Part shown: piece by piece, positions 3,674 through 46,624 of the stretch | Position numbering within the stretch: the stretch's first letter is position 1 | Layout: every line of letters starts with the position of its first letter | Source: a virus | Lineage: Duplodnaviria; Caudoviricetes | IMG/VR virus record: IMGVR_UViG_3300025789_000006 | Location: 1-53,156 of that record | Direction: 5' to 3' (one strand) | DNA length: 53,156 bases | Notes under the pieces: model-generated | The model's database searches: none | The model's input: the letters and a program-made list of their open reading frames with translations, nothing else | Told to the model about the DNA's origin: nothing | Translations under genes and position numbers: made by a program

Positions 3674-5605
3674 TTAAGCTCCTAGTTTAGATTTCAATTG
3701 ATTAACTTCTGCTGTCAATGCTTGGATAGATGCAATCATCAAGGGAATAAGTTCTGTATAGCGAACACCCAAATACCCTTCTATTTCACCTTCTTTTTTA
3801 ACTACATCCATTGCTTCTGGAACAACATTTTGAACAGTTGTTGCATCAACACCAACTTGTGGTTTGTTTTCTGCATCATTTTTCCAAGTGAATTTGATTG
3901 TTTTAATTTGAGCAATGTCAGTCAATGGGTCGGTATATGTCCCTGTGATGTTTTTCAGTTTGGGGTCGGAATATGATGTCCATGAAGTTGAACCCCAATT
4001 AAGTTGAACACCTGCACTGTTGGTGTTGTAAATAGTAAATGGGGGTGATGATGTGCTTGAACTGTTTCCAAGACGCAAATCCCACCATTTGCCAGATGCC
4101 GTATTATTAAAACGGCATACTGAATCCCAACTTGCATTACTGTTGTTTACATAAAGAGAGACATTTTGACCAGAGCATTGAAAGTTTGCACAATCTGTAT
4201 TACTTAAAACTGAAAGTTGTTGAGAAGGTGAACTTGTCCCGATACCTAGATAGCCTGCGCTAGTAAAGCGACCATATTCAGTGCCATTTGCATAAAAAGT
4301 CAATGGCACAGCACCGATTCCATAGATACGGTTTTCGGTTGCGCCACGCATTACTAATGCGCCATATCCTGAACCAGTTTGAATGCCAATACCGTCACTG
4401 CCTGATGCAGAGTAGACATTGAACTGTTGGTATTGACTACCGCCCGCACCAACAAGAACTTGTTGGGCGTAATTGATATACATTGCCTGTAGCTGTCCGG
4501 CTCCATTATTAACATAGAACCCAAGTTCGCCACGGTTAACTTGACCAGAGCCGATGAAGGTTCGGATGGAAGAAACATCGTAGTTGGTGGCGGTGTTGTA
4601 CCATTGAATCCGAGTAAGTTCTGACCCACTTGAGACACTACCCCACTGGGCCATGTTTCCGCTTACAGCAAGTTTTCCGTAGGTAGAAGAACCAACAATA
4701 CCAATGCCGACATTACCTCCATTGGGGGAAATGCCAATGTTTTGATATGCGGAACTGCCGTAGTCATATGCCTCCAATCGACCGTAAGTCGTTTCCCAAG
4801 ACAAGAAAATTCCCTTGCCCGTATAGGGCTGTAAACTGCCTTGAGCAACAACACTTGCGCTCGCACTAACGCCACCCGCAGATTGAATGTAGTAATTATT
4901 GTTGGATGGAGTCAATCCAACACCAAATTGACCTGTGGTTATAAAGCGACCTGCTTCTGCGCCGTTTGGTCTAAAAATTAAAGGATATGCACCACTTGTT
5001 CCAATAGCTAGAGATTGAGTGCTAGAGCCAGTATCAATGTATGAAGTACCACCGCTTTGGTACAACCGCATAACATCATTTGTACCATCATTAACTTTGA
5101 TGAAACCTGTTCCTGTAAGCGTTAATGATGTACCATTAAAAGTCAAATTAGCACTTGATTGAAAAGCGCTTGTTCCATTACCGTAAGGAATTTGGTTTGC
5201 AGTCAGCGAAGTCAAACCTGTGCCACCCGAAGCTACTGGCAAAGTTCCGGTTGTTAAAGCCGAGGTTGAAGTGGCATAAACAGCGCCACCAGAAGTAAAC
5301 GCAGTAAGTCCTGTACCACCGTTTGTGGTTGCCAATGTGCCTGCAACAGTCACAGCGCCTGTGGTTGCAGTGTTGGGGGTCAGGCCGGTTGTGCCAAAGC
5401 TGATTGAGGATACATTGATGTTGCCTGCTTTGGAAGCCAACACCTGCACATTACCTGATGCATCTTTGTAAAAAAGCTTGCCATCAAAGTAGTTCAATGC
5501 CAATTCAGCGCCCGACGCACTGCTTGTCAAGTTGGATGCAGAAGGCGTGTTTCCAGTTGAGCCACTGGCGTAAATTAGTATGGGGGTGTATCCGCTTTGT
5601 GCCAT
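3674..5605 (-). CDS. Tail fibre with C-terminal intramolecular chaperone (peptidase S74-like)
   Basis: GELALN and NGGTG repeats, GNVGIG shaft repeats, SDPKLK autocleavage-type motif, YTELIPLMIASIQAL coiled end. Confidence 0.88.
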   Translation of the reverse strand: MAQSGYTPILIYASGSTGNTPSASNLTSSASGAELALNYFDGKLFYKDASGNVQVLASKAGNINVSSISFGTTGLTPNTATTGAVTVAGTLATTNGGTGLTAFTSGGAVYATSTSALTTGTLPVASGGTGLTSLTANQIPYGNGTSAFQSSANLTFNGTSLTLTGTGFIKVNDGTNDVMRLYQSGGTSYIDTGSSTQSLAIGTSGAYPLIFRPNGAEAGRFITTGQFGVGLTPSNNNYYIQSAGGVSASASVVAQGSLQPYTGKGIFLSWETTYGRLEAYDYGSSAYQNIGISPNGGNVGIGIVGSSTYGKLAVSGNMAQWGSVSSGSELTRIQWYNTATNYDVSSIRTFIGSGQVNRGELGFYVNNGAGQLQAMYINYAQQVLVGAGGSQYQQFNVYSASGSDGIGIQTGSGYGALVMRGATENRIYGIGAVPLTFYANGTEYGRFTSAGYLGIGTSSPSQQLSVLSNTDCANFQCSGQNVSLYVNNSNASWDSVCRFNNTASGKWWDLRLGNSSSTSSPPFTIYNTNSAGVQLNWGSTSWTSYSDPKLKNITGTYTDPLTDIAQIKTIKFTWKNDAENKPQVGVDATTVQNVVPEAMDVVKKEGEIEGYLGVRYTELIPLMIASIQALTAEVNQLKSKLGA

Positions 5606-5614
5606 GTTTTTTCC

Positions 5615-8482
5615 TTAGAATGCGCCGCCTGCAATGCCACCTGTGATTGTGCCATTTGCCGCGTTACAAGTTATTGACGAGTTTACCAATTGTGGCAAAT
5701 TGCCGCTAGTCGCCGTTACGAAAGTTAGATAGTTTGTCGCGCCCGTAGAAGCCGCAGTCACCGCCGTGTTGACCGTGTTTGTGGCTCCCAAGTTGGCAAC
5801 AGTCGTTGTGCTAGAAACAACAAAAGGTGCGGTTCCAGTCGCCACCGTATTGGTCAATTGACCAGACATGTTCAAGGTTGTCACGCCTTGGATGTAACTG
5901 CTTGCCATGTTCAGACCGGCACTACCCCATGTGAGCAATCCTGTTGTACTATTGCCGGGAGGTAACAAATAACCGGCCCAGTTACCTGTCGCCGCACTTG
6001 CTGATGTCGAATAAATCCAACCTGCACCACCGGGAACAGCAGTCGCCAACAAATTGCCTGCGCTGTCTTGAACGGTGATATTGCCTGTTGAATCGTTGTC
6101 GATCACATAAGCTGTACCTGCCAAAATTGTGTTTTCAGCAGGCAGTTTGACTGTTTGTGTGTTTGTGCCGCTGAAGTTTTGGTAGAAGGTCGCAGTATTT
6201 GTCAGCGTTGTTGTGCCGCCTGCTGTGGGCACATTGGTGTAACCCGGCGCAAAGTTGTTGAACGATGCGATGGTGCTGACGGTACTTGCTGATCCAGTGC
6301 CGCCATTGGCTGTTGCAAGCGTTCCTGCCACAGTAATTGCGCCTGAGGTCGCGGTGGACGGTGTCAAACCTGTAGTGCCAAAACTGAGTGTGGTCACAGC
6401 CACGCCAGACAGAGTTGACCACTGTGGTGCTGTAGCCCCTGAGTTGACAGTCAAGATTTGTCCTGCAGACCCGATTGCTAGAGTGCTGAATGCGCTTGTG
6501 CCTGCACCATAAACCAAAGAACCAGTCGCAAGTGTTGAAAGACCCGTACCGCCGTTTGTGACAGTCAAAGAGCCAGACACATTGGTATTGGCAGTGCCAA
6601 GAGCCAAATTGCCAAACGCAGGAGCTCCTGCGCCGCCAGAAATTAAGGCATTTCCTGATGTTCCTGCGGCAGAATAGGCATGTGCAGTACCTGTGCCATA
6701 CCCAACACCGCCTGCGGTAGGCGTTGCTGTGCTGTTTGTACCGCCGTTTGCGATTGGCACGATACCAATAAGGCTCAATGCCTGCGCAGTTGTGGCGTTG
6801 GTCACAGCACTTGTGCCGTTGGCGTACATGAAACCAGTCAAACCGGTCACTGTGATGCTGTTAAATGCCTCAGAAGAGCTTCCCAAGACCTTTTCCCACA
6901 CAGAGCCGTTGAACACAGCCCAATCACCAACAGACCACAAGCTGATGCCATTCAAAGTGGTTGTACCTGCAGTCGAAACCACATAGTAGTAACCGTTTGT
7001 ACCGACTGATGAGGTCAATGTTGGGGTATTTGTCGCCGCATTCCATGTGCCTTGATAGGTAGTCGCGCCCGAAGCATTGGTGGTGATGCTTGTGATTTGA
7101 CCTTGAGCGTTGACCGTAATCTGTGGAATAGCCAAAGCAGACCCGTAAGTGCCTGCAGAGACGCCCGTATTTGTGATGGATGGTGTAATCGTGCCCGATC
7201 CATTGGTAATGGTGATGCCGGTGCCTGCGGTCAGCGTAGACAGCGTGTAGCCCGTACCATTACCAATTAGTAATTGTCCATTTGTAGGCGTTGTATTGAG
7301 CCCTGTACCGCCATTCGCGACAGGGGTTGTGCCCAAAAGCGTCAACAATTGAGCTGTGGTTGCGGCTGTATAGGCTGAAGTGCCGTTGGCGTAAGCAAAA
7401 CCTGTGAGTGTTCCTGCCACACCGGTACCGCCAGAGCCTGCATTGAGCGTACCGCCCAATACCACCGCGCTCGATGTCGGTGTATTTGGTGTCAAGCCTG
7501 TTGAGCCTGCGCTAAAAGTCGCAACACCTGAACCAGAGATCACTGAGCCCCAACCGCCGGTTGTGTAGGCTTCCAAAGTGCCGGTGTCGGTGTTGTAGCG
7601 GAACGCACCTTGTGCAGGTGTACCGCGCTGTGCTGTCGTGCCTGATGGCAACTGAACAAAGTTGGTGCCGGGCAGGGTTGGATTCGATGCAAGGCCAATC
7701 ACAGGCACACTGGTGCCGTTGGTGACCACAATTTGGTTGACTGTGCCTTGCACATTGGTCACAGAGCCACTGCCGGTGCCGATTGTTTGCCATGTGCTAC
7801 TTGCGTAGAACTCCATGGTCTGGGTATCGGTGTTGTAGCGCATGACGCCGTTGTTTGCCAAACGCTGTGCAGTGCCACCAGAAGGCAATTGAACGCCACC
7901 AGTGCCCGGCAAAACAGGATTTGACACCAGACTAATGGTTGGCGAGCCACCCACAGCATTGCCAAAAGCCACATTGATCTGATTGGTCGTACCACCGATG
8001 GCTGTTTGACTGAATGTCGAGCCATTGATGGTCATCAAACCAGTACCAGATAGACTGGACAGGTTTTGAAGGTTGGTGCTGAGGCCAAATGTGGGGTTTC
8101 CTGCGATGCCATCTGCGTTGGCGATGGTCATGCCTGCACCAACAGCCAAAAGCCTGTTGATGACCGTACTGGCCCCGTTCTTGACAATGATTCCGGTGCT
8201 CGCGGCGTTCAAACTTGCCGCCGGGCCCGTCATATTGATCTGCAGGGTGCTTCCTGCACCATTGTCAGTCAATGAAAGGCCAGAGGTGGCGCTCAAATAA
8301 CGAGCCTGAGTCAGCCCTGCAGTCGATCCAACGGTCAGGAAAGGGTAATTCAGCGCGCCGGCGCCTGCAATTGCGCCCGTGGTGGTCTGCGCGGTAACAC
8401 CGTTTTGAACGACAGGAACGAGCTCGGAGCCAGTCAAGGCTCCTGCTGTTGGTAGTTGGGTAATGGTTACTTGTCCACTCAT
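5615..8482 (-). CDS. Long tail fibre / Gly-Thr-rich virion fibre
   Basis: 955 aa with many xxNGGTG repeats, a duplicated PSGTTAQR...RYNTDT unit and a YQGTWNA module. Confidence 0.85.
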   Translation of the reverse strand: MSGQVTITQLPTAGALTGSELVPVVQNGVTAQTTTGAIAGAGALNYPFLTVGSTAGLTQARYLSATSGLSLTDNGAGSTLQINMTGPAASLNAASTGIIVKNGASTVINRLLAVGAGMTIANADGIAGNPTFGLSTNLQNLSSLSGTGLMTINGSTFSQTAIGGTTNQINVAFGNAVGGSPTISLVSNPVLPGTGGVQLPSGGTAQRLANNGVMRYNTDTQTMEFYASSTWQTIGTGSGSVTNVQGTVNQIVVTNGTSVPVIGLASNPTLPGTNFVQLPSGTTAQRGTPAQGAFRYNTDTGTLEAYTTGGWGSVISGSGVATFSAGSTGLTPNTPTSSAVVLGGTLNAGSGGTGVAGTLTGFAYANGTSAYTAATTAQLLTLLGTTPVANGGTGLNTTPTNGQLLIGNGTGYTLSTLTAGTGITITNGSGTITPSITNTGVSAGTYGSALAIPQITVNAQGQITSITTNASGATTYQGTWNAATNTPTLTSSVGTNGYYYVVSTAGTTTLNGISLWSVGDWAVFNGSVWEKVLGSSSEAFNSITVTGLTGFMYANGTSAVTNATTAQALSLIGIVPIANGGTNSTATPTAGGVGYGTGTAHAYSAAGTSGNALISGGAGAPAFGNLALGTANTNVSGSLTVTNGGTGLSTLATGSLVYGAGTSAFSTLAIGSAGQILTVNSGATAPQWSTLSGVAVTTLSFGTTGLTPSTATSGAITVAGTLATANGGTGSASTVSTIASFNNFAPGYTNVPTAGGTTTLTNTATFYQNFSGTNTQTVKLPAENTILAGTAYVIDNDSTGNITVQDSAGNLLATAVPGGAGWIYSTSASAATGNWAGYLLPPGNSTTGLLTWGSAGLNMASSYIQGVTTLNMSGQLTNTVATGTAPFVVSSTTTVANLGATNTVNTAVTAASTGATNYLTFVTATSGNLPQLVNSSITCNAANGTITGGIAGGAF

Positions 8483-8872: not shown

Positions 8873-9946
8873 TTACCTCGTGTAGACAGAAATATTCGGG
8901 GCGAAGTAGATCGGCGACTTATCGCGCTCTTCGTTCTCAGCCATGATGAAGTACTTCTCGGCTTGGCCTTCCAAGTAAGTGATGCGTCCTTGCTCGACAC
9001 CGGGCAGGATCATGCTCATCTGGTGGGCCAAGATGAATTGAATGGCCTGATTCCAACGCTGAGGAATCTCAAGCTGTCCATTCAGGTCGCCAACATCGTC
9101 AATCTGACGCGAGTACCACACAGTCATCTGCACAAATGGGTCAGATGGTGTGGGCCACAGCGTGATCTTTGCTTGAGGCAATTGACGATTGAACCAGAAC
9201 TGATACGGCTGATTGGCTGTGAAGTTCTTGTTGGGCAAATTCGTGTAGTCGTCGCGGTTCAAGCGCGCCATGGTGATCTCAGTCGAGTTGCAACCGAGAT
9301 ACCACTCATCCAAGGCCAAAGTTGTGCCACCAAACGCTTGGATGCGATAGTAGGCCACATTGGCGCCGGGATCGATGTCTTGATAAATCCACTGCCCGTT
9401 GGTCACGGTCACATTGGTGCCGGTGTACAGGGTCGTCCAGTTGGTTCCGTCGCTTGAACACTGCAGGTAGTAGTTCCATACCGCACTGCCATTGTTGGCA
9501 ATGTATGGCATGAAGCCAATTGACCCAATGTATTGGGTGTTCGACGCGCCGTAGTTGACCGTGAAGTTGCCGTTGGGCGATGTTTGTTGGCAGTAAGTGT
9601 TGATGTTGCCATCAGCGATGTTGCCCACCACGCCGCCTGCGCTCGATGTATACGACCCCACAGGGCGCGTCATAGTGCGATACAGGGCGTTTAAGACATC
9701 AACCCCACCCAGAGGTAGCAAGTACTCGTATTGATTGGGCTGAAGGCCGTATACGGTCTTGTTGATTGCCCAATAGTTGATGCCTTGGTTGATGAGGTTG
9801 CTGAGGGCAAAGAAAAGCGCCTGTTTAGAGGCTTGGACTTGTTCAACGGTGAGCTCTTCCGCAAGCTTACCCGATAGACGGGCACCTTGGTCAATGAACT
9901 GCTGTACGGTGACTACAGTTTGTCCGACAGTACCGCTGTAAGCCAT
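8873..9946 (-). CDS. Head-tail adaptor protein with inserted discoidin-like beta domain
   Basis: N- and C-terminal adaptor-like motifs (NQGINYW, LWPTP, IPQRW) flank an SSDGTNWT-type carbohydrate-binding-like insert. Confidence 0.6.
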   Translation of the reverse strand: MAYSGTVGQTVVTVQQFIDQGARLSGKLAEELTVEQVQASKQALFFALSNLINQGINYWAINKTVYGLQPNQYEYLLPLGGVDVLNALYRTMTRPVGSYTSSAGGVVGNIADGNINTYCQQTSPNGNFTVNYGASNTQYIGSIGFMPYIANNGSAVWNYYLQCSSDGTNWTTLYTGTNVTVTNGQWIYQDIDPGANVAYYRIQAFGGTTLALDEWYLGCNSTEITMARLNRDDYTNLPNKNFTANQPYQFWFNRQLPQAKITLWPTPSDPFVQMTVWYSRQIDDVGDLNGQLEIPQRWNQAIQFILAHQMSMILPGVEQGRITYLEGQAEKYFIMAENEERDKSPIYFAPNISVYTR

Positions 9947-9949
9947 AAA

Positions 9950-10186
9950 TTACCACCCTTTGTGCTTAGGATTTTTGTGTTCTGCGGTGCTGATCTTTCC
10001 ACCCTTGGCATAACGACCTTTCAACAAAGCATGAATTGCTTTTGCTTCAGATGCGCCGACTTTTGGTTTTGAGCGATTGATTTCTTTGTCAACTGCCTCC
10101 TTGTTGTAAGAAGGTGCAGGTGCATCAATCAGCTTTTGTCTTTCTTTGGGCGACATATTGATTTTTGCCCATGGGTTGTATTCCAT
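9950..10186 (-). CDS. Small basic late protein with YAKGG motif
   Basis: Start MEYNPW after an AGGAG RBS. Confidence 0.65.
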   Translation of the reverse strand: MEYNPWAKINMSPKERQKLIDAPAPSYNKEAVDKEINRSKPKVGASEAKAIHALLKGRYAKGGKISTAEHKNPKHKGW

Positions 10187-10197
10187 AATTTTCTCCT

Positions 10198-10716
10198 TTA
10201 CCAACCGGGGCATTTCCAACGCTTGAGTGATGCTTTTGCCCGTTCAGCATCGCCTTTTGAATGTTCAACCACTCCCGACATTCTCGCGCAAAAACTGTCT
10301 TTACGCGAGCCGCCTTTGGGCTGTGGAGCTTTAAGGTGAGAACCCGTTTCGCGGTTGTACTTGGCGCGACCTTTTTCAGTCAATCCTGCGCCTTTTGATA
10401 CCGGCAATTTTTCTTTGCGACCAACAGAAAGAGAAGGGCCACCTTCTTTTTTCTTTACTGTCTTAGCAGACTGCTTGAAAGCATCTGCAGTGGGTGCTCC
10501 TTTGCTACCGGGCTTGCGCATCTTCTCGCCAGACCCATGGGCTATCCGCTCCTGTTTAGCATGGATGTTGGCATACAAACCGCCCTTAGCGAACTTCTTG
10601 CCTTCATCAGCCTTCACAAATTCTTTGCCAACTTTTTGAGGCACACCACCTACACCACCTTTGGTGTGAGCGGCGGCTTCCATCAGTCGGTGTTGTGCAG
10701 GTGATTTGCTAGGCAT
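10198..10716 (-). CDS. Basic modular late protein (three small modules joined by FAKGG/KKEGG)
   Basis: Start MPSKSPAQ at 10716; C-terminal module contains SFCARM...LKRWKC. Confidence 0.75.
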   Translation of the reverse strand: MPSKSPAQHRLMEAAAHTKGGVGGVPQKVGKEFVKADEGKKFAKGGLYANIHAKQERIAHGSGEKMRKPGSKGAPTADAFKQSAKTVKKKEGGPSLSVGRKEKLPVSKGAGLTEKGRAKYNRETGSHLKAPQPKGGSRKDSFCARMSGVVEHSKGDAERAKASLKRWKCPGW

Positions 10717-10718
10717 GA

Positions 10719-11498
10719 TCAGGTACCTACGCCAGTTGTTGTGTTGGCATTCTGAATCAACTTGCCAGTCACAATAATGCCTGCCGCAATAGTTCCAGAG
10801 CTTGCCGACAACTGCCACTGAATATCAGTTTTCTGAGCATAACCAAATGGATCAGCCACGCGACTTGCCGTGTAGATAGACACAAAAGGCTGTTGCAACA
10901 CATTACGAGCCACGCCAGACACATTGTCTGCGGCTTGAACCTTATAGGTCACAGTCACAGTACCGGTGTAAGGGTTTGATGTGTTGGCTTCCACCCAATC
11001 CAAGAAGAAGGTGTAGCCTGCAGGCACAGTGTAAACAGTACTTTGTGAACGACCAATGCCGGGGTTAATCTGAGCCAAAGTATTGGTACTTTGTTTCAGC
11101 GTAATTGTGCCCACATTGGTTGTTTGACTGCTTCCTGCGGATGCCAAAGTCAAATTATTGATGCGGAAATAGCTGTTGACAGTCGTCACAGCAGTTGTAC
11201 CGTTCAAAAACAGGGTTTCCGAAATCGGATTGAAGTTAGCGTCAAGACCGCTGATCAAAACCGATGCCGAAGTGTTGTCTGATGCAGAGCTACTCACCAT
11301 TGTCAGCGTCGATGCTGAAGTTGGGTATGTGTAAGTGCTTGCGTTTTCCCAAACTGGGATAGATGTTGTGCCAACAGATGCTTGATAGCCAAAAATGCTG
11401 ACGGTGCTATGACCCAAAATTTGACCACGGGCTACTTGCAGATCAAATGGTTCAGTTTGACCACCACGGGTGATCGATGAAACGATTCCATTACTCAT
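10719..11498 (-). CDS. Virion structural beta-rich protein
   Basis: 259 aa, Ser/Thr-rich, FDLQVARGQI N-terminus, located in the head-tail region. Confidence 0.65.
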   Translation of the reverse strand: MSNGIVSSITRGGQTEPFDLQVARGQILGHSTVSIFGYQASVGTTSIPVWENASTYTYPTSASTLTMVSSSASDNTSASVLISGLDANFNPISETLFLNGTTAVTTVNSYFRINNLTLASAGSSQTTNVGTITLKQSTNTLAQINPGIGRSQSTVYTVPAGYTFFLDWVEANTSNPYTGTVTVTYKVQAADNVSGVARNVLQQPFVSIYTASRVADPFGYAQKTDIQWQLSASSGTIAAGIIVTGKLIQNANTTTGVGT

Positions 11499-11510
11499 AA
11501 TATGTCCTTT

Positions 11511-11537
11511 TAAAAGTGAGGGGCCGAAGCCCCTCGC
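11511..11537 (-). terminator. Intrinsic terminator with UUCG tetraloop
   Basis: Minus strand GAGGGGC-TTCG-GCCCCTC followed by ACTTTTA, just after the 601-aa gene. Confidence 0.7.
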
Positions 11538-11549
11538 TTACTTCACACA

Positions 11550-13355
11550 TTAGCCTCTGCGCTTTTTCACAGGAGACATGGTCACAGATGTGATTGTCTT
11601 CGTGACGCTACCTTTTGGCGGCTTGCCTTCCAGAGGGCCCATCATTTTTGGCATATCGGACATGATTTTCTTGCCCAATCCACCCAACAATGCGGCTTTT
11701 CCACCTTTGGCATAGCCCTTGTGAACTTGGCTCATGGCTGTATCGTGGGCATCTTCAGCATCATCGGTGTGATAGTCGCCTTCCGTGAGGTGTTTGCCCT
11801 CAGGGTTAAAGAATTTCACGCGATGCTCGCCCCAGTCACGATCCTTGTACACCTTGGCTACATGGCCCTTAGGGCCGGTGTGGGTCTTAATCAAACGCAG
11901 ATTAGGTTTTTCTTGACCCCCATCTGCGTGGTGATGGACTTCGCCGCCCTTCTTAAAGGTTCCAGATTGCAAGCTGTTTGCCACAGGTTGGCTAACGAAA
12001 TGCTTGGGCATAGCCACAGGCTTGCCCATAGCATTCACATTACCCCCTGTGGCGTAGGCTTTTTTTGAGGCATGCCCTCCATGCTTATAGCCACCACCAT
12101 TAGCAAGCTTTACATCACCAGTTTTGGTGTTGGTTTTGCCTTTTGGAGTGGTGTCAGCAGGACGGTTTTCCCAATTGCCGCCTTCAACGGTGTCGCGTGT
12201 CTCGTACTTGTCGATTGCGCCGCCGTCAGCTTTGTGGTGCATCTTGTGATGAGCTTTGCCACCATGCTTGAAGCCACCTGCATTGCTCATGCGAACGCCG
12301 CCAGTGGCTTTGGAGCCGCTGAACTTGTCTGCAGTGTGCATGTCGGTGTCTTCGTAGTAGTGCTCATTGCCTTCAATGGTGCCACCCAAGCTGATCTTGC
12401 CGGAGTTCATGCTCTTCTTGGAGTCACTAGGGATAGTGTTTCCAGTAGAACCGCCTTCAGCAAAATGATGCTTTTTGTGAGCGTGACCGCCATGCTTATA
12501 GCCTGCGGCCTTACCCAACTTGACATCACCAGTCTTGCCACTGGTGTGATCGTGGTGCTCACCGTCGTGGATGTTGTTGACAAAGCGTTTTGCGTTGCCT
12601 TCAATGGTGGTTTTGGTTTCGTCGCGATCAATTTCGCCACCAGATGCATAGCTACCGCCCATGCACATCTTTTTGTGGTGAGCAAGCATGCGCTTGGCGT
12701 GAGCAGAACCGCCATCAGCCTTGCACATCTTTTCATAGTGCTTGCACATGGCTTTGTGGTGCTCATGAGAGCCCTCAGGATGACCAGAAGTCTTATGAAC
12801 TTTGCCACCGTGAGCGTGGTGAGCCATGCCACCATGCTTTTTGTGGTGAGCATGTGCCATGTCCAAAGCTTCGTGGTGGTGAAGTTCTTTTTCGAGCTTC
12901 TCGATCATCTTATGATCTGCAGAACCGCCCTTCTTCATGCCGCCAAGAGCTTTCTTGACCATCATGGCGCGAGCCATGCGTTGCTGAGGAGTCATTTGAC
13001 CCAAAGCCGCTTGACCCATAGGCTTCATGCCACCTGCAGGAGCACCCATTGCGCCGGGCATAGCACCGGGCATAGCGCCTCCCAAAGCCTTGTGAGCAAC
13101 TTTGCCACCCTTCTTGTACATCTGGGGGTTCATTGCCTTCACACGAGCCATCATGGAAGGCTTCTTGGGGGCCTTACCGGCCTCAGAAGCAAAAGCCTGA
13201 TGCATACCACCCATGGCATGGTGTTGCATAGCCTTGTGACCATGCTCAGAATGCTCTTTGTGGTGCTTGGCTTTGACTTTGCCACCTTTTTTGAGCTTCA
13301 AGGACACTGAAGGCTCATCGGTGTACATCTTCACCATTGGTTTGAATTCAGACAT
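11550..13355 (-). CDS. His/Lys/Gly-rich modular late protein (putative polyprotein)
   Basis: 601 aa, about 58 His, about 18-20 x-[AK]-x-G-G motifs and three internal repeats; GGAGG RBS. Confidence 0.85.
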   Translation of the reverse strand: MSEFKPMVKMYTDEPSVSLKLKKGGKVKAKHHKEHSEHGHKAMQHHAMGGMHQAFASEAGKAPKKPSMMARVKAMNPQMYKKGGKVAHKALGGAMPGAMPGAMGAPAGGMKPMGQAALGQMTPQQRMARAMMVKKALGGMKKGGSADHKMIEKLEKELHHHEALDMAHAHHKKHGGMAHHAHGGKVHKTSGHPEGSHEHHKAMCKHYEKMCKADGGSAHAKRMLAHHKKMCMGGSYASGGEIDRDETKTTIEGNAKRFVNNIHDGEHHDHTSGKTGDVKLGKAAGYKHGGHAHKKHHFAEGGSTGNTIPSDSKKSMNSGKISLGGTIEGNEHYYEDTDMHTADKFSGSKATGGVRMSNAGGFKHGGKAHHKMHHKADGGAIDKYETRDTVEGGNWENRPADTTPKGKTNTKTGDVKLANGGGYKHGGHASKKAYATGGNVNAMGKPVAMPKHFVSQPVANSLQSGTFKKGGEVHHHADGGQEKPNLRLIKTHTGPKGHVAKVYKDRDWGEHRVKFFNPEGKHLTEGDYHTDDAEDAHDTAMSQVHKGYAKGGKAALLGGLGKKIMSDMPKMMGPLEGKPPKGSVTKTITSVTMSPVKKRRG

Positions 13356-14416: not shown

Positions 14417-15331
14417 TTACATACCGGGCGTACCGTATGCACAGCGTGGGTCAGTAAAGCCCACAGCGTAGCGCTCAGTAGCCTTGTAACGCATAGTGTC
14501 AGTTTCGAAGTCGCCTTCCATGGTTTTCTCCAAACGACGACGCATCAAGAGCTTGAAGCCCTCAGGAGCGTCGGTTTGAACCCACCATGCAGTAGCGGAA
14601 GTCAAACGAGACAGAACAGCGGCACCTTCGTCAAGCAAACCGATAGATTTGATTGGGTTGATGTCGTTGTTTGCGTTACCAGTACGCAGAACAGATTTCA
14701 ACAACACTTCAGCTTGGAAGATATTGCCGGGAGCCACGATCAATTGACGGGGCACCAAGCGAATACGCTTGCCGTTGTTGTCCACTGCTTGACGGATTTG
14801 AATCAACATCTGTTCGAGAGATGTTTGAGACAACACGGCGGCAGTAGCCAATTGGTTGCTGAAGGTACCGTTGACGATTGGGTGTGCAGTGTTGATCAAA
14901 GACACACCGTCGCCGCCGGGATAGGCGCTGTTGAAGGCCGTATTGAGAATGTTCGCAGACAACAATTCTTTGGTTTCCACCAAGGATTGTGCCAAGTGAC
15001 GAGCATAAACTTGACCGATACGGATGTGGTCGCCGTCTTCAACGAGAACCTTGGTCAAAGCGAAGGCCAAGCCATACACTTTGTAGAGGTAACGCTGTAA
15101 GAACAACACGCCACCTTGCTGATAGGTCACTGGAGTACCGTCAGGCAATTGTGGAGCGGCGCCGAATCCATACAGGACAGGCTCTTCGTGGTAGTTACGA
15201 GGAATACCATCTTCCTCACGGAAAACGCGTGACCATTCGTCAGCGCGTTGATCATAGACTCCGTCGAAACATTCGTTGAGAATTGGTTCAACAATCGAAC
15301 GGAAATCCGTACTTCGCATTGGTGCGGCCAT
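14417..15331 (-). CDS. Major capsid protein
   Basis: 304 aa downstream of scaffold and decoration genes, with GFGAAP, GGDGVSL and DFETDTMRYKATERY...DPR motifs. Strong RBS and a following terminator. Confidence 0.85.
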   Translation of the reverse strand: MAAPMRSTDFRSIVEPILNECFDGVYDQRADEWSRVFREEDGIPRNYHEEPVLYGFGAAPQLPDGTPVTYQQGGVLFLQRYLYKVYGLAFALTKVLVEDGDHIRIGQVYARHLAQSLVETKELLSANILNTAFNSAYPGGDGVSLINTAHPIVNGTFSNQLATAAVLSQTSLEQMLIQIRQAVDNNGKRIRLVPRQLIVAPGNIFQAEVLLKSVLRTGNANNDINPIKSIGLLDEGAAVLSRLTSATAWWVQTDAPEGFKLLMRRRLEKTMEGDFETDTMRYKATERYAVGFTDPRCAYGTPGM

Positions 15332-15961: not shown

Positions 15962-16504
15962 TTAACCCGAAAAGACGGGCATTTTGTTTGGTTGCTGATC
16001 AAAAGAGCCCATACCTTCGCCTTCAACTTGTACCAATGGACGACCTGAGCTGTCACGCCCCTGCAGGCTTTCCATTTGAATCTTGACTTTCTCTGCTTCT
16101 TCACGAGGTTTGTCGTGATGCATGAGGGTCATGACCTCTTGGAAGAGCTCCATAGGAAGCTTGAACAGCAACATTTCGTTGCATGATATGTAGCCAACAT
16201 GCTCACCTGACTTCACTCGATAATCTTCATAACCGGGCAACTCTTCCGACTTAACGGGTACATAGCCGAGGCGAATTCGCTTATCAATGCTGTCATAGCT
16301 GTTGGTTGTTGAAAGCCAGCAAAGGTGCCACCCGTCCATTTCGGGTAACTTAGGCAATGCTGATTGCGTCCACTCCTCACTCCACATCTTTCGGCGTTCC
16401 TGTGTCGAAGCGAACTTTTCTTGAGGCGCTACGCGTCCTGCTTCCCCGTTTTCACGGTCTTGGCGTCCGTTAGCGTTCAAAGATTTTTTGAGTCTAGATT
16501 CCAT
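15962..16504 (-). CDS. Conserved head-region hypothetical protein
   Basis: 180 aa between scaffold and decoration genes; GGGG RBS. Confidence 0.7.
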   Translation of the reverse strand: MESRLKKSLNANGRQDRENGEAGRVAPQEKFASTQERRKMWSEEWTQSALPKLPEMDGWHLCWLSTTNSYDSIDKRIRLGYVPVKSEELPGYEDYRVKSGEHVGYISCNEMLLFKLPMELFQEVMTLMHHDKPREEAEKVKIQMESLQGRDSSGRPLVQVEGEGMGSFDQQPNKMPVFSG

Positions 16505-17498: not shown

Positions 17499-17960
17499 TT
17501 ACACATAGGCTTTGAACGAAAGCGGGTCATCAGTGACCTTAGCAATCAGTTCGTGGTCGTTAATCGTCATGAATAACACGGGTTCTTGAAACTCTTGGTC
17601 GGCTTCCGATGGGACATTGCGCTCCCAACGATCACCACCCCACTTTGGAACCCGTACAAAGTCACCAATCTCAGCCCATGAGCCCTCAGGCCATGGTTGC
17701 ATGGTGTCCCTGTTCTTGAAAGCAAGCGGCCCAATTGCCACGACCTTGCCGATCATGTTGTTCCACTTTTCGTTTTCTTTGGTTTCATCGACGATGATGA
17801 TGCGGCCTGCCTTCTTTTTGATTCGACGCAGTTGCACAATCACACGACCACCGTAAGGAGCTTGTCCTGCCGGTACATCAGGGAACGCCCATGCCATTTC
17901 TTCGGCGTTAGGCGCTCCTGATTGTCCCTCGATGGTAGGGATGTCTTTAATGTCACTCAT
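17499..17960 (-). CDS. GroES-like co-chaperonin
   Basis: PYGGRVIV, GKVVAIGP, EIGDFV and INDHELIA match the GroES fold. Start at MSDIK. Confidence 0.8.
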   Translation of the reverse strand: MSDIKDIPTIEGQSGAPNAEEMAWAFPDVPAGQAPYGGRVIVQLRRIKKKAGRIIIVDETKENEKWNNMIGKVVAIGPLAFKNRDTMQPWPEGSWAEIGDFVRVPKWGGDRWERNVPSEADQEFQEPVLFMTINDHELIAKVTDDPLSFKAYV

Positions 17961-18017
17961 TTTTAAATCTCCATCACCATATTTCAGGTGCATAAGCGCG
18001 CTTAATCAGCGCATTGG

Positions 18018-18197
18018 TTAAAGTTTGCCTTCTTCTTCTTCCAAGATGTTGTCAATAATGTCTAAGGTTGCTTGCAACCCTTGATGCTCACCGACTAATC
18101 GTTGGTACGACTCCCAATTGATTGGCGCCCCTACGGATAGAGCCACCTTCAACTCGTCTTGTCGTAATTTGATCCTATGGATCAGTTGCTCAATCAT
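18018..18197 (-). CDS. Small head-region protein (59 aa, not in ORF track)
   Basis: MIEQLIHRIK...WESYQRLVGEHQGL...; ATGA-coupled to the upstream ORF. Confidence 0.7.
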   Translation of the reverse strand: MIEQLIHRIKLRQDELKVALSVGAPINWESYQRLVGEHQGLQATLDIIDNILEEEEGKL

Positions 18198-18367
18198 TTA
18201 TTCTTTTTGGTCACAGCATGTGCCAGACCGCCAGATTTTTTACCTTCAGAGGAAGATTGACTTCCACCCTTAGGTTGCATTGAAGTGCCGTCAAGTTTTT
18301 CGCCTTGAGCGATACGCTTGTGTTGCGGCACATCAATGGTTCTCTGTTCGTAATCAGATGTTGCCAT
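18194..18367 (-). CDS. Small basic protein (57 aa, not in ORF track)
   Basis: MATSDYEQRTIDVPQHKRIAQGE...KKSGGLAH...; AAGGAG RBS inside the end of the portal gene. Confidence 0.65.
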   Translation of the reverse strand: MATSDYEQRTIDVPQHKRIAQGEKLDGTSMQPKGGSQSSSEGKKSGGLAHAVTKKNK

Positions 18368-20831
18368 TTGGAGCTCCTTGTGGTTGAGGTTGTGGCCCTT
18401 GTGGGGCCGGTGGTGTCACAGGCATTTGAGGTACCTGTGCTTGAGCTTGAGCCGCTTGTCGAATCGTCTCATGCGTCATCTTGGCGTTCTCAATGGCAAT
18501 CTTAGTCTGATTGTCCATCTGAGCTTTTTGTTGATCCAGAGCCAAACGAGCCTGAGCCAGTTGAGCGTCTTGCTGATCTTTCTGGGTCTTGCGCTGTGTC
18601 TCAGCCATGCTTGTCTGCTGTACCACTTGTGCATCAGGTGGTATTGGAGGTGGCTTGGGTTGACTGCGCTCTTGAGCCATTTGAATGATCTTCTGGAACG
18701 ACGGCATCAAGTCACCAAACACATCATTGACATCCAACATCACATGGGCGCCAATGGTCGTGAAGACCTTGTCGATGGTCGGTGTGAGGTTCGGATTATC
18801 GTAGTCGTCAATTGGCTTGCCGGTCATCTCTTGCACATAGCCATTCGAGCGGTTCAAGTACCACAAGGTCATGTGCTGTTTCAAATGCTCGATCAAGTTG
18901 TTGAGGTATGCCGGGTCTGCAAATGGGTTTTGGCCCAAGAACGGATTCATAGCAAACTGCAAGTGGTCTTGAATGTGAGCAATGTGATCTTGTTGGATGT
19001 ACGCATAGGCTGACTGGCCCACGAGCATTGCCGCATTCTCATCTGCTGAGGTGCGTTGCTCAGGTGCAGGCACATCATTCATGATGTCGTTGATGTTGGG
19101 CACTTTCATTTGCTTGAGCATGCGAGCAATCACTGGCCCAATCTTGAACTGATCAGGGAACTGCTGTGCCAACTGCAACACTGCCTGAGACTGCGCCATG
19201 CGCTGAGTCTCAGAAAAAATGTTGGGATCAGACACCGGCTGTACATCGGTGTTCTTGGAGAAGTCTTCGCGCGTGATCTCAAGGTCAGACACGATGTCTG
19301 CTTTTTGCATGTCGTCAAAGTACCAACGGTTCAGGCGGCACAGAATCTTCAACACACGAGCTTGTGATGCATGCAGGCGCGCATGGATTGATGAGTAGAC
19401 TTGAGAGCCTTGCTCGATCAATGCTTGCGTGGTGCCCACAGGCGACTGTGCATTCACATCGGCAATCTTCTCTTCAGCCGTCGTGACCACAGAACTCGTG
19501 GCTTTGTCCAAGAAGCCAAGCAGTTGGAAGAGCACATCGCTTGGTGGGTTGAAGGGCATCGGCATAGCGATCTGCCGGATGTCTTGCACACCGGGCGCGC
19601 CTTCAATCTCAATGATCTGGGTTACATCGACCTGCTGAGACTGCCCACTAATCTTCGCGCCCTTGAGCTTAAGCATAGTAGCGGCGTTGTTAATGTGAGC
19701 ACTGTCCAGTAGAGCGCGGAGAGAGCCAGTAAGAGCGGCAGACAGACCGCCAATGAGATGAGGTAGGCCAATAGCGTAAGCACCGCGCCATGGAATGAAT
19801 TTGAACTCCACGACCCAGTCAAGTTTGGTGAGCGTCTCATCTGCTTCCTCCCAGTTGCGGTACAAACCAACGACCTCGTTGTCGAGCACATCAATCATCA
19901 AGATGTAAGGCGCGTTTTTGCCCTTGCTGTGCTTGTCTTCTTCGAGCTCAAGCCATGTGTAGATGTGATAGACGGTGCGAATGCCGTCCTTGTTCTCTTC
20001 GAACTGCTTGCCTTCAATCTTGTTGTTGGCCTTGGCTACCTTGCCTTCATCAATCGTGCCGGATGCCTGCACATAGTTGATGTCGCGGTACATGCCCGAC
20101 TTGATGCGGCGCTCGAACTCGAATTGGGTGATCTCGTGAATCTCAGCGGCGCGCTGTGCCGTGTAAAAGTTGGTTGCCGCAAAGGGCAGGATCACACGGT
20201 CAATCGGCAGGAACTCGATGCATGGACGCTTCTTGTCTTCGTCGTACCACAGTTTCATGTACTGTGAGCCGCCGAGTGGCAGTTGGGTCAGCAGTTGTTC
20301 TTGTTCGTCGCGGAACTCTTCGATCTGCTCAGTGATCTGCCAGTTGAGGTACTCGACCTTGCGATCTGCCACCGCCGTCTTGAGATCGTCAACCTTACCA
20401 ATGATCTTCGACTTGACCGGGCCATCTGGTGGAAAGAGCTCTTTGATTGCGCGAGCGGCAAAGTCAACGCAACCCTCAGCCATGGCAGGATGCACGACCT
20501 TAGAGGCTCCCATAAAGGTTGCACCTCCGGGGGCATCATTGCCCATACCAGTCCGTTTAATACCCTCTTCATATTGTTTGTCGCGCAGTTCTCGTGCCTG
20601 CTTATCGCTCTCAAGTAAGTCTAAGTAATTGAAGACGATGTCCGACAAAACACCGGGATCAACAGAGTCTGCTAGGTTGTCATAGAACTCTGGGTTGAAT
20701 TCTGGGCCATCGTCAATGTCAACAATGGCTGAACCGTCTGGCAATTCGTCAGTGTCGAATGCAGGCATGTCCATCACAGCGGAGCCGTCTTCTTGCTCTT
20801 GAATGTTTAGGTCGTCGTCTTTTTCAGCCAT
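18354..20831 (-). CDS. Portal protein
   Basis: 825 aa downstream of terL with a long Gln-rich C-terminal barrel-like helix, as in podoviral portals. Confidence 0.88.
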   Translation of the reverse strand: MAEKDDDLNIQEQEDGSAVMDMPAFDTDELPDGSAIVDIDDGPEFNPEFYDNLADSVDPGVLSDIVFNYLDLLESDKQARELRDKQYEEGIKRTGMGNDAPGGATFMGASKVVHPAMAEGCVDFAARAIKELFPPDGPVKSKIIGKVDDLKTAVADRKVEYLNWQITEQIEEFRDEQEQLLTQLPLGGSQYMKLWYDEDKKRPCIEFLPIDRVILPFAATNFYTAQRAAEIHEITQFEFERRIKSGMYRDINYVQASGTIDEGKVAKANNKIEGKQFEENKDGIRTVYHIYTWLELEEDKHSKGKNAPYILMIDVLDNEVVGLYRNWEEADETLTKLDWVVEFKFIPWRGAYAIGLPHLIGGLSAALTGSLRALLDSAHINNAATMLKLKGAKISGQSQQVDVTQIIEIEGAPGVQDIRQIAMPMPFNPPSDVLFQLLGFLDKATSSVVTTAEEKIADVNAQSPVGTTQALIEQGSQVYSSIHARLHASQARVLKILCRLNRWYFDDMQKADIVSDLEITREDFSKNTDVQPVSDPNIFSETQRMAQSQAVLQLAQQFPDQFKIGPVIARMLKQMKVPNINDIMNDVPAPEQRTSADENAAMLVGQSAYAYIQQDHIAHIQDHLQFAMNPFLGQNPFADPAYLNNLIEHLKQHMTLWYLNRSNGYVQEMTGKPIDDYDNPNLTPTIDKVFTTIGAHVMLDVNDVFGDLMPSFQKIIQMAQERSQPKPPPIPPDAQVVQQTSMAETQRKTQKDQQDAQLAQARLALDQQKAQMDNQTKIAIENAKMTHETIRQAAQAQAQVPQMPVTPPAPQGPQPQPQGAPNGNI

Positions 20832-20833
20832 GA

Positions 20834-21025
20834 TTATCCTTTATTGCCTGAGTGCTTGTGCTTGGCTCGTGCAAGACTTTTTAAATTTAAGCCTTTGTGT
20901 GCCTTATGCGCATCAGGGCTGTGCAAGTGATGCTTGTGCTTGACATGGTCTTCAGGGTCATTGTGGTGCTCCAGTCCATGGAACTGGGCATAAAAATGAT
21001 GTGAGTCTAGTTTCTTCTTGCTCAT
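20834..21025 (-). CDS. Small His-rich protein
   Basis: 63 aa with 14 His, ATGA-coupled to the upstream gene. Confidence 0.6.
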   Translation of the reverse strand: MSKKKLDSHHFYAQFHGLEHHNDPEDHVKHKHHLHSPDAHKAHKGLNLKSLARAKHKHSGNKG

Positions 21026-22779
21026 ACTTCCCATCCTTCGTCATTTGATTTTTCTCTAGGCGCAGGCTCTTGTGGTTGGATATGCACCGTTCTGTTCTGC
21101 GGTATTGTCTCACCCAACTTAGGCTTGCCAGTCTTTGCCGATATCTCAGTGGTCGGCACACGGGCATACCTGCCGTCTTCTTTCTTCATCAACTGTGGAT
21201 CGTACTTCACAAAGAATCCGTTAGAGTCAATGTGAGCGTTGCCTTTCTCACCGATGGCCTTCTTGTTCTTAAGGCCCACGATCACGCCATGCTCGCCCTC
21301 AGGCTGAATGTCCAGTGGTCGGAAGTCATGGCTGTCACCGTTGATGACCTTGAACACTTTGCCAGTCTCATGATCAACGATCTGGTGGGGCAGATGCTCA
21401 TTGTGTGTGAAGGCCATCGCCACATTGTCGCCACCCTCCAACCGACGGCGCATCTGCTTCCAGTTGCTGTGTGGATTGTGGACATCTTGATCGCTCACAC
21501 CAGTGCTTGAGTAAGTGTAGTGGTGGTTGGGCGCGATGGGGTTGGTGTTGTTCTTGGTGTAGTCATAGAAGGTCACATCAGGGTGACCGTTGATGATGGC
21601 CTTGTGGACTCGTGGATTGATGTCCGACAGCACATTGAGGCGCACACCTAAGTGGTTGTTGTTCTGTGCCGCAATCGCTTTGGCGTCCTGAATCTCATCG
21701 TACAGCTTGACAGCAAACGAGTGAGGGTCGTTGATCATCGCCAAGGTCTTGTTGAGACTGTTCAGGCGTGGGCCCTTAAACTCTTCAAGGTTGGTACCGC
21801 CACCCAGTTTGAAGTAGTTGCCTGAGGTCTTGCCTAAGCACTCTTCCTTACACGATGCTGAGTTGGGGCAGGTGTTGAACTTGCCTTGACCAAACGCAGG
21901 AGCCAATGCCAGACCAGTCGTCTCGACACCGCGCCCATCGGGAAGCTTGATGGCCTCCTCGCCGCCCTTCTCAGACTTGATGAGCTTGGCGTTCTTGCCA
22001 AGCAAGTCCTTGGGCTTGTTGTCGCTTGTGCGGCCTACATGGTTGGACACCATCTCAGCGGCTCTCACGCTGTTCATCATGCGGTGATGTGCAGGCAGTG
22101 CCAAGTGATGAGCAATCGCCTCATCGAAGGCGCGAGCCAGACTGGCGATGCTTGGGCTACCGGCGTCATAGGGTGTGAAGCCATTGGGGGTCTTCACTGC
22201 ACCTTGAGTCGCAGGCATGATATTGAATACACGGCGCTTTGGTGGCTGACCACCATCACCCATGTGAGGAAAAGCATCACGGGCTTTCTTCTTCAGGAGC
22301 TCAAGTCGCATTGCACCACCTGAGGCCATGCCGGGCGCGGCTCCAGTGGCAGGTGCAGGAGGTGGGGCCATAGCCGCCAGAGCTTGGCCTTGAGGCGTCA
22401 TTTGAAGCATGTTGCCCATCTGTGCAGGAGCTCCACCGCTTGGGCCAGTGGGCGCGCCACCGGGAGCAGGAGGAGTGCCGGGCGTCGCACCGGGAGCACC
22501 GGGCTGACCGGGCTGAGGTTGACCGGGCACAGGTGCAGGGATTGGATTGAGTTGTTGACCGGGCTGTTGGGAGTTGGTGTCCACGCCACCGATTGGCATG
22601 CCTTTGTTGGTCGCTACGCCACCGATTGATGGGATGCCACCAATTGCTTTGGGGTTGGGGTTGACGAACATCTTGGGCTCCATGTCCAGAGCTTCATTCA
22701 CGCCGATGCTGTCCATGAGGTCGGGGTTTCTGTGCTGTGCCAGATTGACGCGCATCTGCGCTAGTGATGGGGTGTCCAT
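21022..22779 (-). CDS. Gp88-like (radical-SAM-related) protein with Pro/Gly-rich N-terminal leader
   Basis: CPNSASCKEEC (Cx5Cx3C), VRLNVLSDI, FYDYTK, YTYS, INGDSHDFRPLD and IVGLK motifs. Confidence 0.75.
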   Translation of the reverse strand: MDTPSLAQMRVNLAQHRNPDLMDSIGVNEALDMEPKMFVNPNPKAIGGIPSIGGVATNKGMPIGGVDTNSQQPGQQLNPIPAPVPGQPQPGQPGAPGATPGTPPAPGGAPTGPSGGAPAQMGNMLQMTPQGQALAAMAPPPAPATGAAPGMASGGAMRLELLKKKARDAFPHMGDGGQPPKRRVFNIMPATQGAVKTPNGFTPYDAGSPSIASLARAFDEAIAHHLALPAHHRMMNSVRAAEMVSNHVGRTSDNKPKDLLGKNAKLIKSEKGGEEAIKLPDGRGVETTGLALAPAFGQGKFNTCPNSASCKEECLGKTSGNYFKLGGGTNLEEFKGPRLNSLNKTLAMINDPHSFAVKLYDEIQDAKAIAAQNNNHLGVRLNVLSDINPRVHKAIINGHPDVTFYDYTKNNTNPIAPNHHYTYSSTGVSDQDVHNPHSNWKQMRRRLEGGDNVAMAFTHNEHLPHQIVDHETGKVFKVINGDSHDFRPLDIQPEGEHGVIVGLKNKKAIGEKGNAHIDSNGFFVKYDPQLMKKEDGRYARVPTTEISAKTGKPKLGETIPQNRTVHIQPQEPAPREKSNDEGWEV

Positions 22780-24583: not shown

Positions 24584-24900
24584 ACGGGCTTGATGATGGC
24601 GTAGGGTTCATTGGTGCGCTTCTGGGCGTCCTCGATGGCGTGGAGGTCTTCCAGAATCTCTCTGTTGACCACAATCAGGTCACGATCAAATAGCCAACTC
24701 TCGATCACATTGGTCGAGTCCTTGCCCCACATGAATACGGGCCAGAGGTACAGGCGAATGCGAAAACGCCAAGAGATGAGCATGTGGGTGTGAGTGTGAT
24801 ACCAGACCCACCGGAAGGTCACATAGGGCTTGCGCCATGTGCCAAGCGTGATATTGAGGCCAACACGGGCTATGCGGCCCTCAGGTGTGTACTTAATCAT
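24580..24900 (-). CDS. Hypothetical protein between terS and terL
   Basis: 106 aa, ATGA-coupled on both sides. Confidence 0.6.
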   Translation of the reverse strand: MIKYTPEGRIARVGLNITLGTWRKPYVTFRWVWYHTHTHMLISWRFRIRLYLWPVFMWGKDSTNVIESWLFDRDLIVVNREILEDLHAIEDAQKRTNEPYAIIKPV

Positions 24901-46621: not shown

Positions 46622-46624
46622 GAT

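Follow-up and report, generated by a model that had tools for sequence, protein, structure and literature searches.

The 53,156-bp genome of a tailed virus deposited as IMG/VR record IMGVR_UViG_3300025789_000006 (hereinafter the window, i.e., the whole stretch of DNA analyzed) has direct terminal repeats, is rated 100% complete and carries nearly all of its genes on the minus strand. Between its major capsid gene (14417-15331; family scan) and a 357-amino acid (aa) adaptor-position gene (8873-9946; labeled 'tail adaptor' in one relative) lie three minus-strand genes whose products share a short peptide ending in two glycines. The first codes for a 601-aa 'beads-on-a-string' protein (P0001; 11550-13355) with 21 copies of x[AK]xGG, e.g., LKKGG (13281-13295), YKKGG (13104-13118), YASGG (12636-12650), YKHGG (12486-12500), FKKGG (11943-11957), HADGG (11916-11930) and YAKGG (11700-11714). 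The other two are small basic open reading frames (ORFs) of 172 aa (10198-10716; FAKGG at 10579-10593 and KKEGG at 10438-10452) and 78 aa (9950-10186; YAKGG at 9998-10012). The peptide recurs in a 57-aa post-portal protein (18194-18367; KKSGG), in a 585-aa pre-portal variable protein with a GP88 domain recovered by family scan (21022-22779; hereinafter the Gp88-like protein) and in an 860-aa tape-measure-like or ejection-type protein (46625-49207; PHROGs), all likewise on the minus strand. It behaves as a joint between protein modules and may be a site at which these proteins are cut.

To count the joint we used a loose form (x[AK]xGG), a strict form ([FYLMH][AK]xGG) and [FY][AK]xGG on 75 window ORFs from a simple greedy call, and took as the expectation for each protein the mean of 2000 shuffles that preserve its composition alone. 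Every instance listed in the sequence-only reading of this DNA is present, and its 18-20 or so copies in the 601-aa protein come to 21 among 28 GG dipeptides, against 3.11 expected; the strict form occurs 15 times against 0.71, with none of the 2000 shuffles reaching either count, and [FY][AK]xGG occurs 9 times against 0.12. Since the protein has internal paralogous repeats, these 21 copies do not stand for 21 independent events. The 860-aa protein is also enriched (loose 8 versus 2.04; strict 6 versus 0.24; no shuffle reaching either), and the Gp88-like protein marginally so (loose 4 versus 1.12, p=0.02; two strict copies, MASGG and FKLGG). The 78-aa ORF has a single copy (strict p=0.014) and the 172-aa ORF two (p=0.24). 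The CAEGG of a 540-aa protein, also listed earlier, is within chance (4 versus 1.87, p=0.12; strict 0), as are the Gly-rich tail fibers (loose 5 versus 2.96). The reported absence from structural and replication proteins holds for capsid and terminase (0 each) and for the 36 early/replication ORFs (0 loose versus 2.8; p=0.054, which alone is not significant), but the portal has one loose copy (DAPGG). Likewise, the proposed contrast of late with early genes is borne out in total (39 late ORFs: strict 25 versus 3.4), but without the 601-, 860-, 172- and 78-aa proteins the late ORFs show no excess (strict 2 versus 2.4); hence, the enrichment in the window belongs to those four proteins and not to the late class.

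The codons of the joint are synonymously diverse (GGT/GGC/GGA/GGG), copies sharing on average 8.2 of 15 nucleotides, which indicates that it is conserved at the protein level. Across 102 aligned homologues of the 601-aa protein the GG pairs vary hardly or not at all. Because they stay constant in homologues down to 60% identical to the protein of the window over aligned positions, the peptide is evidently under purifying selection. These results confirm the joint as a real, selected feature, far beyond what composition would produce.

By sequence, the 601-aa protein is a member of a large, nameless metagenomic family that lies within the head-gene module. It matches no Pfam family at E<=0.01; the KGG-repeat family of Pfam is not among its hits, and phrog_7884 (function unknown) matches residues 491-544. 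At E<=0.001 we recovered at least 3693 homologues (8000 candidates scored, 90% clustering), none of them named. At the level of 50%-identity clusters, 574 match at E<=1e-3, 217 at 1e-10 and 70 at 1e-30, some of the weaker ones matching only a shared mini-domain. Among 120 homologues each has 11-21 loose motifs (mean 14.5). The first 27 residues of the family are conserved (MSEFKPMVKM.TDEPSV.LKLKKGG), as are the last 20 or so (SVTKTEKSVTV.P.KKRGG, followed by 2-5 basic residues), with Cys as the C-terminal residue in 47 of the 120. The gene keeps its position, after the capsid gene and one or two ORFs, in 18 of 18 related contigs. Short homologues were considered as natural splits, but those inspected on long contigs seem to come from gene calls with a frameshift or truncation and were left unused; longer homologues were not found either, which is weak evidence.

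The protein is 14.8% Gly and 24% Ala plus Lys (K 84, H 58, G 89, M 40, R 14, D 27, E 30), with a net charge of about +41. An AlphaFold2 model from 102 sequences has a mean predicted local distance difference test (pLDDT) score of 54.8, with 380 of 601 residues below 50, i.e., about 63% predicted to be disordered. Three pieces are modeled with confidence, residues 108-169 (helices), 185-233 (a His/Cys helical hairpin) and 481-549 (a mini-domain of four strands and a helix); a fold search with the model gave no match at E<=0.001, and the top score in the ESM Atlas, 0.79, is under the useful range. The modeled hairpin (window 12657-12803) carries paired HHKxMC motifs and may form a metal site.

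The joint marks module borders and the points at which genes are split and fused, in keeping with the tendency noted in the sequence-only reading. Of the six edges that the three confident segments have, five are no more than 4 residues away from a motif. For populated indel blocks of at least 15 columns (alignment A2), 7 of 9 ends are in or adjoin a motif, and 3 of 9 starts are at a motif with the others 2-5 residues off (chance about 0.21 per edge; the inserted segments are not independent events). This definition allows for the alignment ambiguity of repeated motifs and was adopted after a stricter one, given below, had come out negative. Inserts close with a motif of their own, e.g., a 62-aa insert terminating in HGYANGG and another, homologous to the separate 78-aa ORF of the window, terminating in KGR[YH]A[DK]GG; the module of this ORF is found inside the large protein of homologues P0072 and P0116. 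The His/Cys hairpin module occupies two different positions among homologues, always terminating in YA[SKE]GG. A further module, 'GLYANIHAK', occurs 44 times: 25 copies are fused to a DUF6321 module right after the GG (20 found by regular expression, 5 by eye), 17 are in ORFs that stop within 25 aa past the GG, one is fused to a different module and one stops without GG. Conversely, 12 of 17 DUF6321-only ORFs (by regular expression) begin with 'MAKNPSLAVGRGEKL' or a close variant, while the fused forms read 'GG-PSLAVGRGEKL'. Frameshifting or 2A-like recoding at the joint was also considered and dropped, since the codons vary and no slippery pattern recurs.

In relatives, variable small ORFs built from four recurring mini-modules ('MPSKSPAQH..', 'MPLIKSKS..AVAIAY', 'GLYANIHAK..' and DUF6321) fill the space between the large protein and the adaptor-position gene. 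The 172-aa protein of the window strings together three mini-modules, a DUF3008-like N-terminal one, 'GLYANIHAK' and DUF6321 (Pfam PF19846, residues 108-167, E=8e-17, 62.1 bits versus a cut-off of 28.5), with FAKGG and KKEGG at the joints and the end ...KCPGW; separate PHROG families cover its residues 1-41, 43-90 and 97-169. In the 78-aa protein, YAKGG is followed by the 15-aa basic tail KISTAEHKNPKHKGW; its start codon is uncertain, an in-frame upstream ATG giving 'MPRLVKEKIM...'. Such ORFs usually end in tryptophan: 86 of 92 distinct small modular ORFs do so (53 GW, 24 CW), and over 48 loci the stretch from the large protein to the adaptor-position gene holds 168 ORFs, 85 of them with a terminal Trp, versus 2 of 563 elsewhere. 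Of the 83 non-Trp ORFs in that region, the 60 inspected are mostly β-rich structural proteins, and in the window Trp ends are confined to the 78- and 172-aa ORFs. The tails past the last motif are short (57 of 69 are at most 25 aa, in length classes of 3-9, 14-16 and 21-23 aa) and all basic, mostly with Cys beside the final Trp, e.g., GG-KVKSCW and GG-NVSTHHENSKHKGCW. In the small proteins the last two residues of the tail are Cys-Trp or Gly-Trp; the large protein often closes with Cys. The 57-aa post-portal family conserves the GG and a basic C-terminal tail of 7-9 aa (..GGLSQAKKK), not the residues ahead of the GG. This family also keeps 'PQHKR.A.GEKLDG', and its counterpart in Caulobacter phage KcrB is 42 aa long and ends in ..GPKGKC, without a GG tail.

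Outside the 601-aa family, the Gp88-like relatives (550-976 aa, with differing middle domains) have at least one motif in 19 of 21 cases, often some 25-70 aa from the C-terminus and followed by a conserved tail (..[YK]KKGG-KVKLHxDMDTMxLELTxxKKAK) that the copy in the window lacks. We also recovered a second modular family (450-660 aa) with other conserved termini and the same modules and joints. It is encoded in 55-61 kb contigs of a sister lineage (identity to the window about 28% for the portal and 33% for the capsid), and its gene sits directly after that of a giant post-portal protein of 1639-1941 aa (contigs L173, 4016-8935; L183, 3538-8934; L196, 3078-8903). The giant proteins contain Pfam ART-PolyVal (E=1.7e-18 and 4e-17), one also having a weak ParB_N match (E=0.0012), and three of them have strict motifs at 6 versus 0.41, 4 versus 0.46 and 6 versus 0.42. 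Y-A-x-G-G stands immediately ahead of the ADP-ribosyltransferase (ART) domain, motifs flank the ParB-like insert, and the tail follows the same plan (..FKKGG-KVRSALMIAKGLKKS). The earlier suggestion that unrelated late proteins share the joint is thus supported, and in relatives the joint borders enzyme cargo, namely the ART-PolyVal and ParB-like domains of these giants; the modules of the 601-aa protein and small ORFs are tiny and basic and not enzymes.

In the 860-aa protein LAEGG, LASGG, HAEGG, YACGG and HADGG lie in the C-terminal part, the last three preceding or separating 'IPAxLxDGEYV' repeats. This C-terminus carries two copies of the tape-measure element 'GG...IPAxLSxGEYV', each with [H/Y]AxGG in front, and the corresponding protein of KcrB (gp066c) has MARGG. 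The element matches two tape-measure families, phrog_6090 (E=2.8e-5) and phrog_24 (E=0.002), and, with 44.8% identity over 71% of the query, the 'tail length tape measure protein' of Caulobacter phage GB2A. The 78 orthologues of the 860-aa protein conserve 'A.GGLP' and 'YYACGGGTGQSDDIPAMLHDGDYV', with HADGG falling in a poorly conserved insert. This tape-measure-like C-terminal element predates the 601-aa family and is more widely distributed. As a separate observation, the 860-aa protein has 141 Cys, 131 of them in residues 30-470 in runs such as CCCDTCCCDTCCCDMCCCD; the DNA of the Cys-rich stretch is a 15-nucleotide tandem array (47846-47983, 9.2 copies, 80% matches), and Cys accounts for 0 to 22% of the residues in the first 40 of the 78 orthologues.

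The mini-modules are also present in 243 phage records, chiefly T7-like cyanophages and pelagiphages. At the three loci inspected they form separate small, very basic ORFs without the motif or a Trp end: between the scaffold and capsid genes in pelagiphage HTVC168P, between the terminase and GroES/portal genes in phage DSL-LC05, and among wholly unannotated genes in cyanophage P-GSP1. Stand-alone copies of the 481-549 mini-domain likewise lack the motif. Hence, the joint goes with concatenation and not with the function of the modules. KcrB shares the order of head genes and has neither a 601-aa homologue nor such small ORFs. Taken together, the syntax of module, hydrophobic-[A/K]-x-G-G, module and basic tail is lineage-specific, selected and common to unrelated proteins of the particle module.

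We propose, at a rough probability of 0.42, that polyproteins packaged in the particle are processed by endoproteolysis at the joint, a reading we favor because it explains most of the facts. The head-gene module encodes a lineage-specific set of basic proteins (601, 172 and 78 aa), predicted to be largely disordered and assembled from small mobile modules, with hydrophobic/aromatic-[A/K]-x-G-G at every joint. The pre-portal variable protein, the tape-measure-like protein and the giant ADP-ribosyltransferase 'polyvalent' proteins of the sister lineage use the same joint; under this proposal, a shared trans-acting factor would read it. A protease, of the phage or the host, might cut after the second Gly, so that fused and split genes would give the same mature products. 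The concatenated precursors would be packaged in the head and come free as individual small basic proteins and domains. The short basic C-terminal tail may be a signal carried once per polypeptide; each separately translated chain would need a tail of its own because the tail would serve as a docking signal or cofactor.

Among known systems the polyvalent protein comes nearest, and what is new here is the fixed joint, the tiny modules and the Trp tails. Proteolytic processing is known or predicted for some polyvalent proteins packaged in particles, e.g., DdrB of phage P1, in the available text of PMC5512222. The polyvalent proteins of that text (Iyer et al., 2017) resemble the present ones in being multi-modular, in having their genes next to those for portal, terminase and head, in their predicted packaging and injection, and in their variable domains; a term search of the text found neither a fixed junction motif nor Trp-terminal tails. 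The motif-bearing giant protein of the sister lineage belongs to this type through its ART-PolyVal domain. In contrast, the 601-aa protein and the small ORFs have modules of 10-70 aa with no recognized effector or peptidase domain, and several effector domains in one polypeptide are found only in the giants and not in the 601-aa protein.

In phage T4 the internal proteins IPI-III and Alt bear an N-terminal capsid-targeting sequence ending in L/I-x-E, which the prohead protease gp21 cuts. By analogy, the present set could likewise be small basic head cargo with a short shared signal, removed, as we propose, after assembly. However, the signal here is internal or C-terminal and ends in G-G, and a gp21-like protease was not detected in our scans. 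The conserved N-terminus of the 601-aa family also ends in GG and not in x-E. The packaging of Alt is mentioned in the available text of PMC5512222.

A parallel to the form of the site comes from adenovirus, in which the protease AVP cuts (M/I/L)XGG|X or (M/I/L)XGX|G in the basic precursors of the core, with pVIc (GVQSLKRRRCF) as cofactor (PMC4246237, in the portion available). Both have a site of hydrophobic-x-x-GG type in basic, DNA-associated particle proteins, and the products, here predicted, are very short and basic; the short basic Cys-aromatic peptide at the C-terminus straight after the site may be analogous as well. Here, however, one more residue separates the hydrophobic position from the GG, so that the (M/I/L)-X-G-G consensus is not matched; Pfam detected no clan CE protease, the present virus is a tailed phage, and the resemblance would be a functional analogy only. 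African swine fever virus has a dedicated cysteine protease for such a purpose. Its particle-core polyproteins are likewise divided by GG, in a eukaryotic virus with no sequence relationship. The polyproteins in question, pp220 and pp62, are cut at Gly-Gly-X (PMC10308890, in the portion available).

Several results weigh against cleavage at the joint. The residues after the GG are biased in homologues (K 25%, then V/A/I, as in 'KKGGKV'), which a binding motif would explain equally well, and the tails past the GG are themselves conserved. Neighboring motifs are frequently only 5-13 residues apart, so that cutting everywhere would yield very short peptides, and in the model three motifs lie inside confident helical regions (KALGG 135-139, MKKGG 140-144, KADGG 212-216). 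The stricter indel test that came first, in which an edge had to fall no more than 3 aa from the end of a motif, gave no enrichment, with 9 of 117 ends and 29 of 117 starts at motifs versus 0.19 by chance. The motif of the 860-aa protein belongs to an element also present in KcrB, which has no 601-aa homologue. Lastly, no peptidase family was found in the 49 of 75 window ORFs scanned with Pfam (26 short ORFs left out) or the 20 scanned with PHROGs, where a divergent enzyme is possible, or in the giant proteins of the sister lineage.

Some of these points would be accommodated if the proteins were uncleaved, polycationic and disordered internal head proteins that bind DNA or metal, with the joint as an RGG/YGG-type interaction unit, a 'sticker', or a hinge. 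We regard this, the main rival reading, as a real possibility, if short of an even chance. The extent of predicted disorder, the charge of about +41 with 58 His and 40 Met, the two-sided residue bias around the GG and the missing protease all fit such a role, as do the predicted His/Cys hairpin with its resemblance to a metal site and the very basic stand-alone homologues of the modules in head modules elsewhere. Yet those stand-alone modules manage without the motif, splits exactly after the GG are not required of a linker, and some joints have acidic or neutral surroundings that make DNA binding unlikely, such as YADGGMPDDE ahead of ART domains and YACGGGTGQSDD of the 860-aa protein. A different kind of linker is envisaged if the modules shuffle by recombination between homologous linker segments and the motif merely hitchhikes with no biochemical role. 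The extensive shuffling, duplication and relocation of modules, and the occurrence of the same modules in different proteins and lineages, agree with this. We nevertheless think it improbable, as five codons sharing 8.2 of 15 nucleotides offer little DNA homology and the GG is invariant in homologues down to 60% identity. That the joint is just a product of Gly-, Lys- and Ala-rich low complexity gains some color from the composition of the 601-aa protein and from the chance-level matches in the tail fibers, but the 0 of 2000 shuffles and the invariant positions in 102 homologues contradict it and leave it hardly any likelihood.

If the joint is indeed cut, the enzyme would have to be sought elsewhere than in the C-terminal domain of the 860-aa protein (46625-47030), to which the sequence-only reading had pointed. 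Its position in a motif-rich protein is the one thing that speaks for it. The domain is a tandem repeat of about 45 aa, 'GG...IPAxLxDGEYV...LDG', conserved in the 78 orthologues and in the tape-measure-like protein of KcrB; it belongs to no Pfam family, its PHROG matches are to tape-measure proteins, and no pattern of catalytic residues is seen in its sequence or conservation line (no dedicated search was run). We deem it very improbable as the enzyme. The lone peptidase-named match among the window ORFs scanned, to Peptidase_S74 (an endosialidase chaperone), is in residues 546-599 of a 643-aa tail-fiber-like protein (3674-5605) and is sub-threshold (E=2.6e-4); we do not count it among the possible enzymes for the GG sites. 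In the head module, a conserved protein of 180 aa (15962-16504) has H60, D71 and C108 invariant in 47 sequences, KcrB having Val at the Cys position. Its AlphaFold2 model (mean pLDDT 64.7) consists of two strands and a long helix and matched no known fold, searches with it giving at best E 2.3 in Foldseek and Z 3.8 in VIA-align (root-mean-square deviation 4.3, 60 aligned); a predicted complex with residues 94-172 of the 172-aa protein scored 0.23 (mark 0.32), which counts neither for nor against. As a putative His-Asp-Cys protease this protein is a lead only. Sequence searches of the 199-, 180-, 321- and 585-aa proteins against PDB chains gave nothing below E=0.09. The late genes that accompany the system and are absent from KcrB (the 325-, 259-, 97-, 106-, 59- and 57-aa ORFs, TerS and part of the Gp88-like protein) include none that is enzyme-like.

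Carried further, the adenovirus analogy would suggest that a clade of freshwater tailed phages matures its head contents in the adenovirus style. A polyprotein cargo of basic DNA-associated proteins and injected ADP-ribosyltransferases would be cut after GG in the DNA-filled head by a protease of unrecognized fold, with the 180-aa protein as a candidate, and the Cys-Trp peptides would act as cofactors or DNA 'sleds' like pVIc. We consider this extended scenario unlikely. In the full-text literature, supplementary files excluded, we found nothing on DUF6321, DUF3008 or GG polyproteins in phages, and a GG junction signal looks to be undescribed in tailed phages, as far as the literature was searched. 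Internal and injected phage proteins decide early infection and counter-defense, and the loading and release of such cargo is understood in few model phages; here, in a widespread uncultured group with at least 3693 family members, a simple recognizable syntax covers unrelated proteins, the ADP-ribosyltransferase polyvalent proteins included. Should cleavage at the joint be borne out, tailed phages would have, within the literature searched, their first GG-directed system of polyprotein maturation, one functionally parallel to those of adenovirus and asfarvirus. Whether or not it is cut, the motif is of practical use for dividing these proteins into modules and predicting mature products.

With respect to the rest of the genome, the virus is an uncultured freshwater phage, probably a podovirus in view of a match to the SU10-type adaptor (59-703; family scan). 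Its closest isolates are the Caulobacter phages RW, KcrB, RLK and GB2A (portal identity 45.6%), which are placed in the proposed genus Riverwalkvirus (PMC11053796, in the portion available). MW202545.1, from a spring virome, is the sole close public genome; no DNA-level similarity of the motif region to known phages was found, and the search results included no cultured member or proteome of the group. Family scans further identified a lysozyme (761-1231), tail fibers (3674-8482), the large (23150-24583) and small (24897-25397) terminases, and an early/replication block (about 25.5-41.6 kb) with a helicase, a Toprim protein, a 2OG-Fe(II) oxygenase and RtcB. The portal (18354-20831) and the large late proteins (41717-53085), the 860-aa protein among them, were recognized with PHROGs. 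A His-rich 66-aa ORF (20834-21034) comes after the Gp88-like protein. The RtcB RNA ligase is full length and on the plus strand (39135-40331; Pfam E=2.1e-131), with no tblastn match in MW202545.1 or KcrB. Within the head module a GroES-like protein was found by family scan (17499-17993; PHROG co-chaperonin E=9e-6; Pfam Cpn10 E=4.4e-4, slightly short of the cut-off), and it is also kept in KcrB, where it is annotated as GroES, and in the sister lineage (Cpn10 E=2.7e-10).

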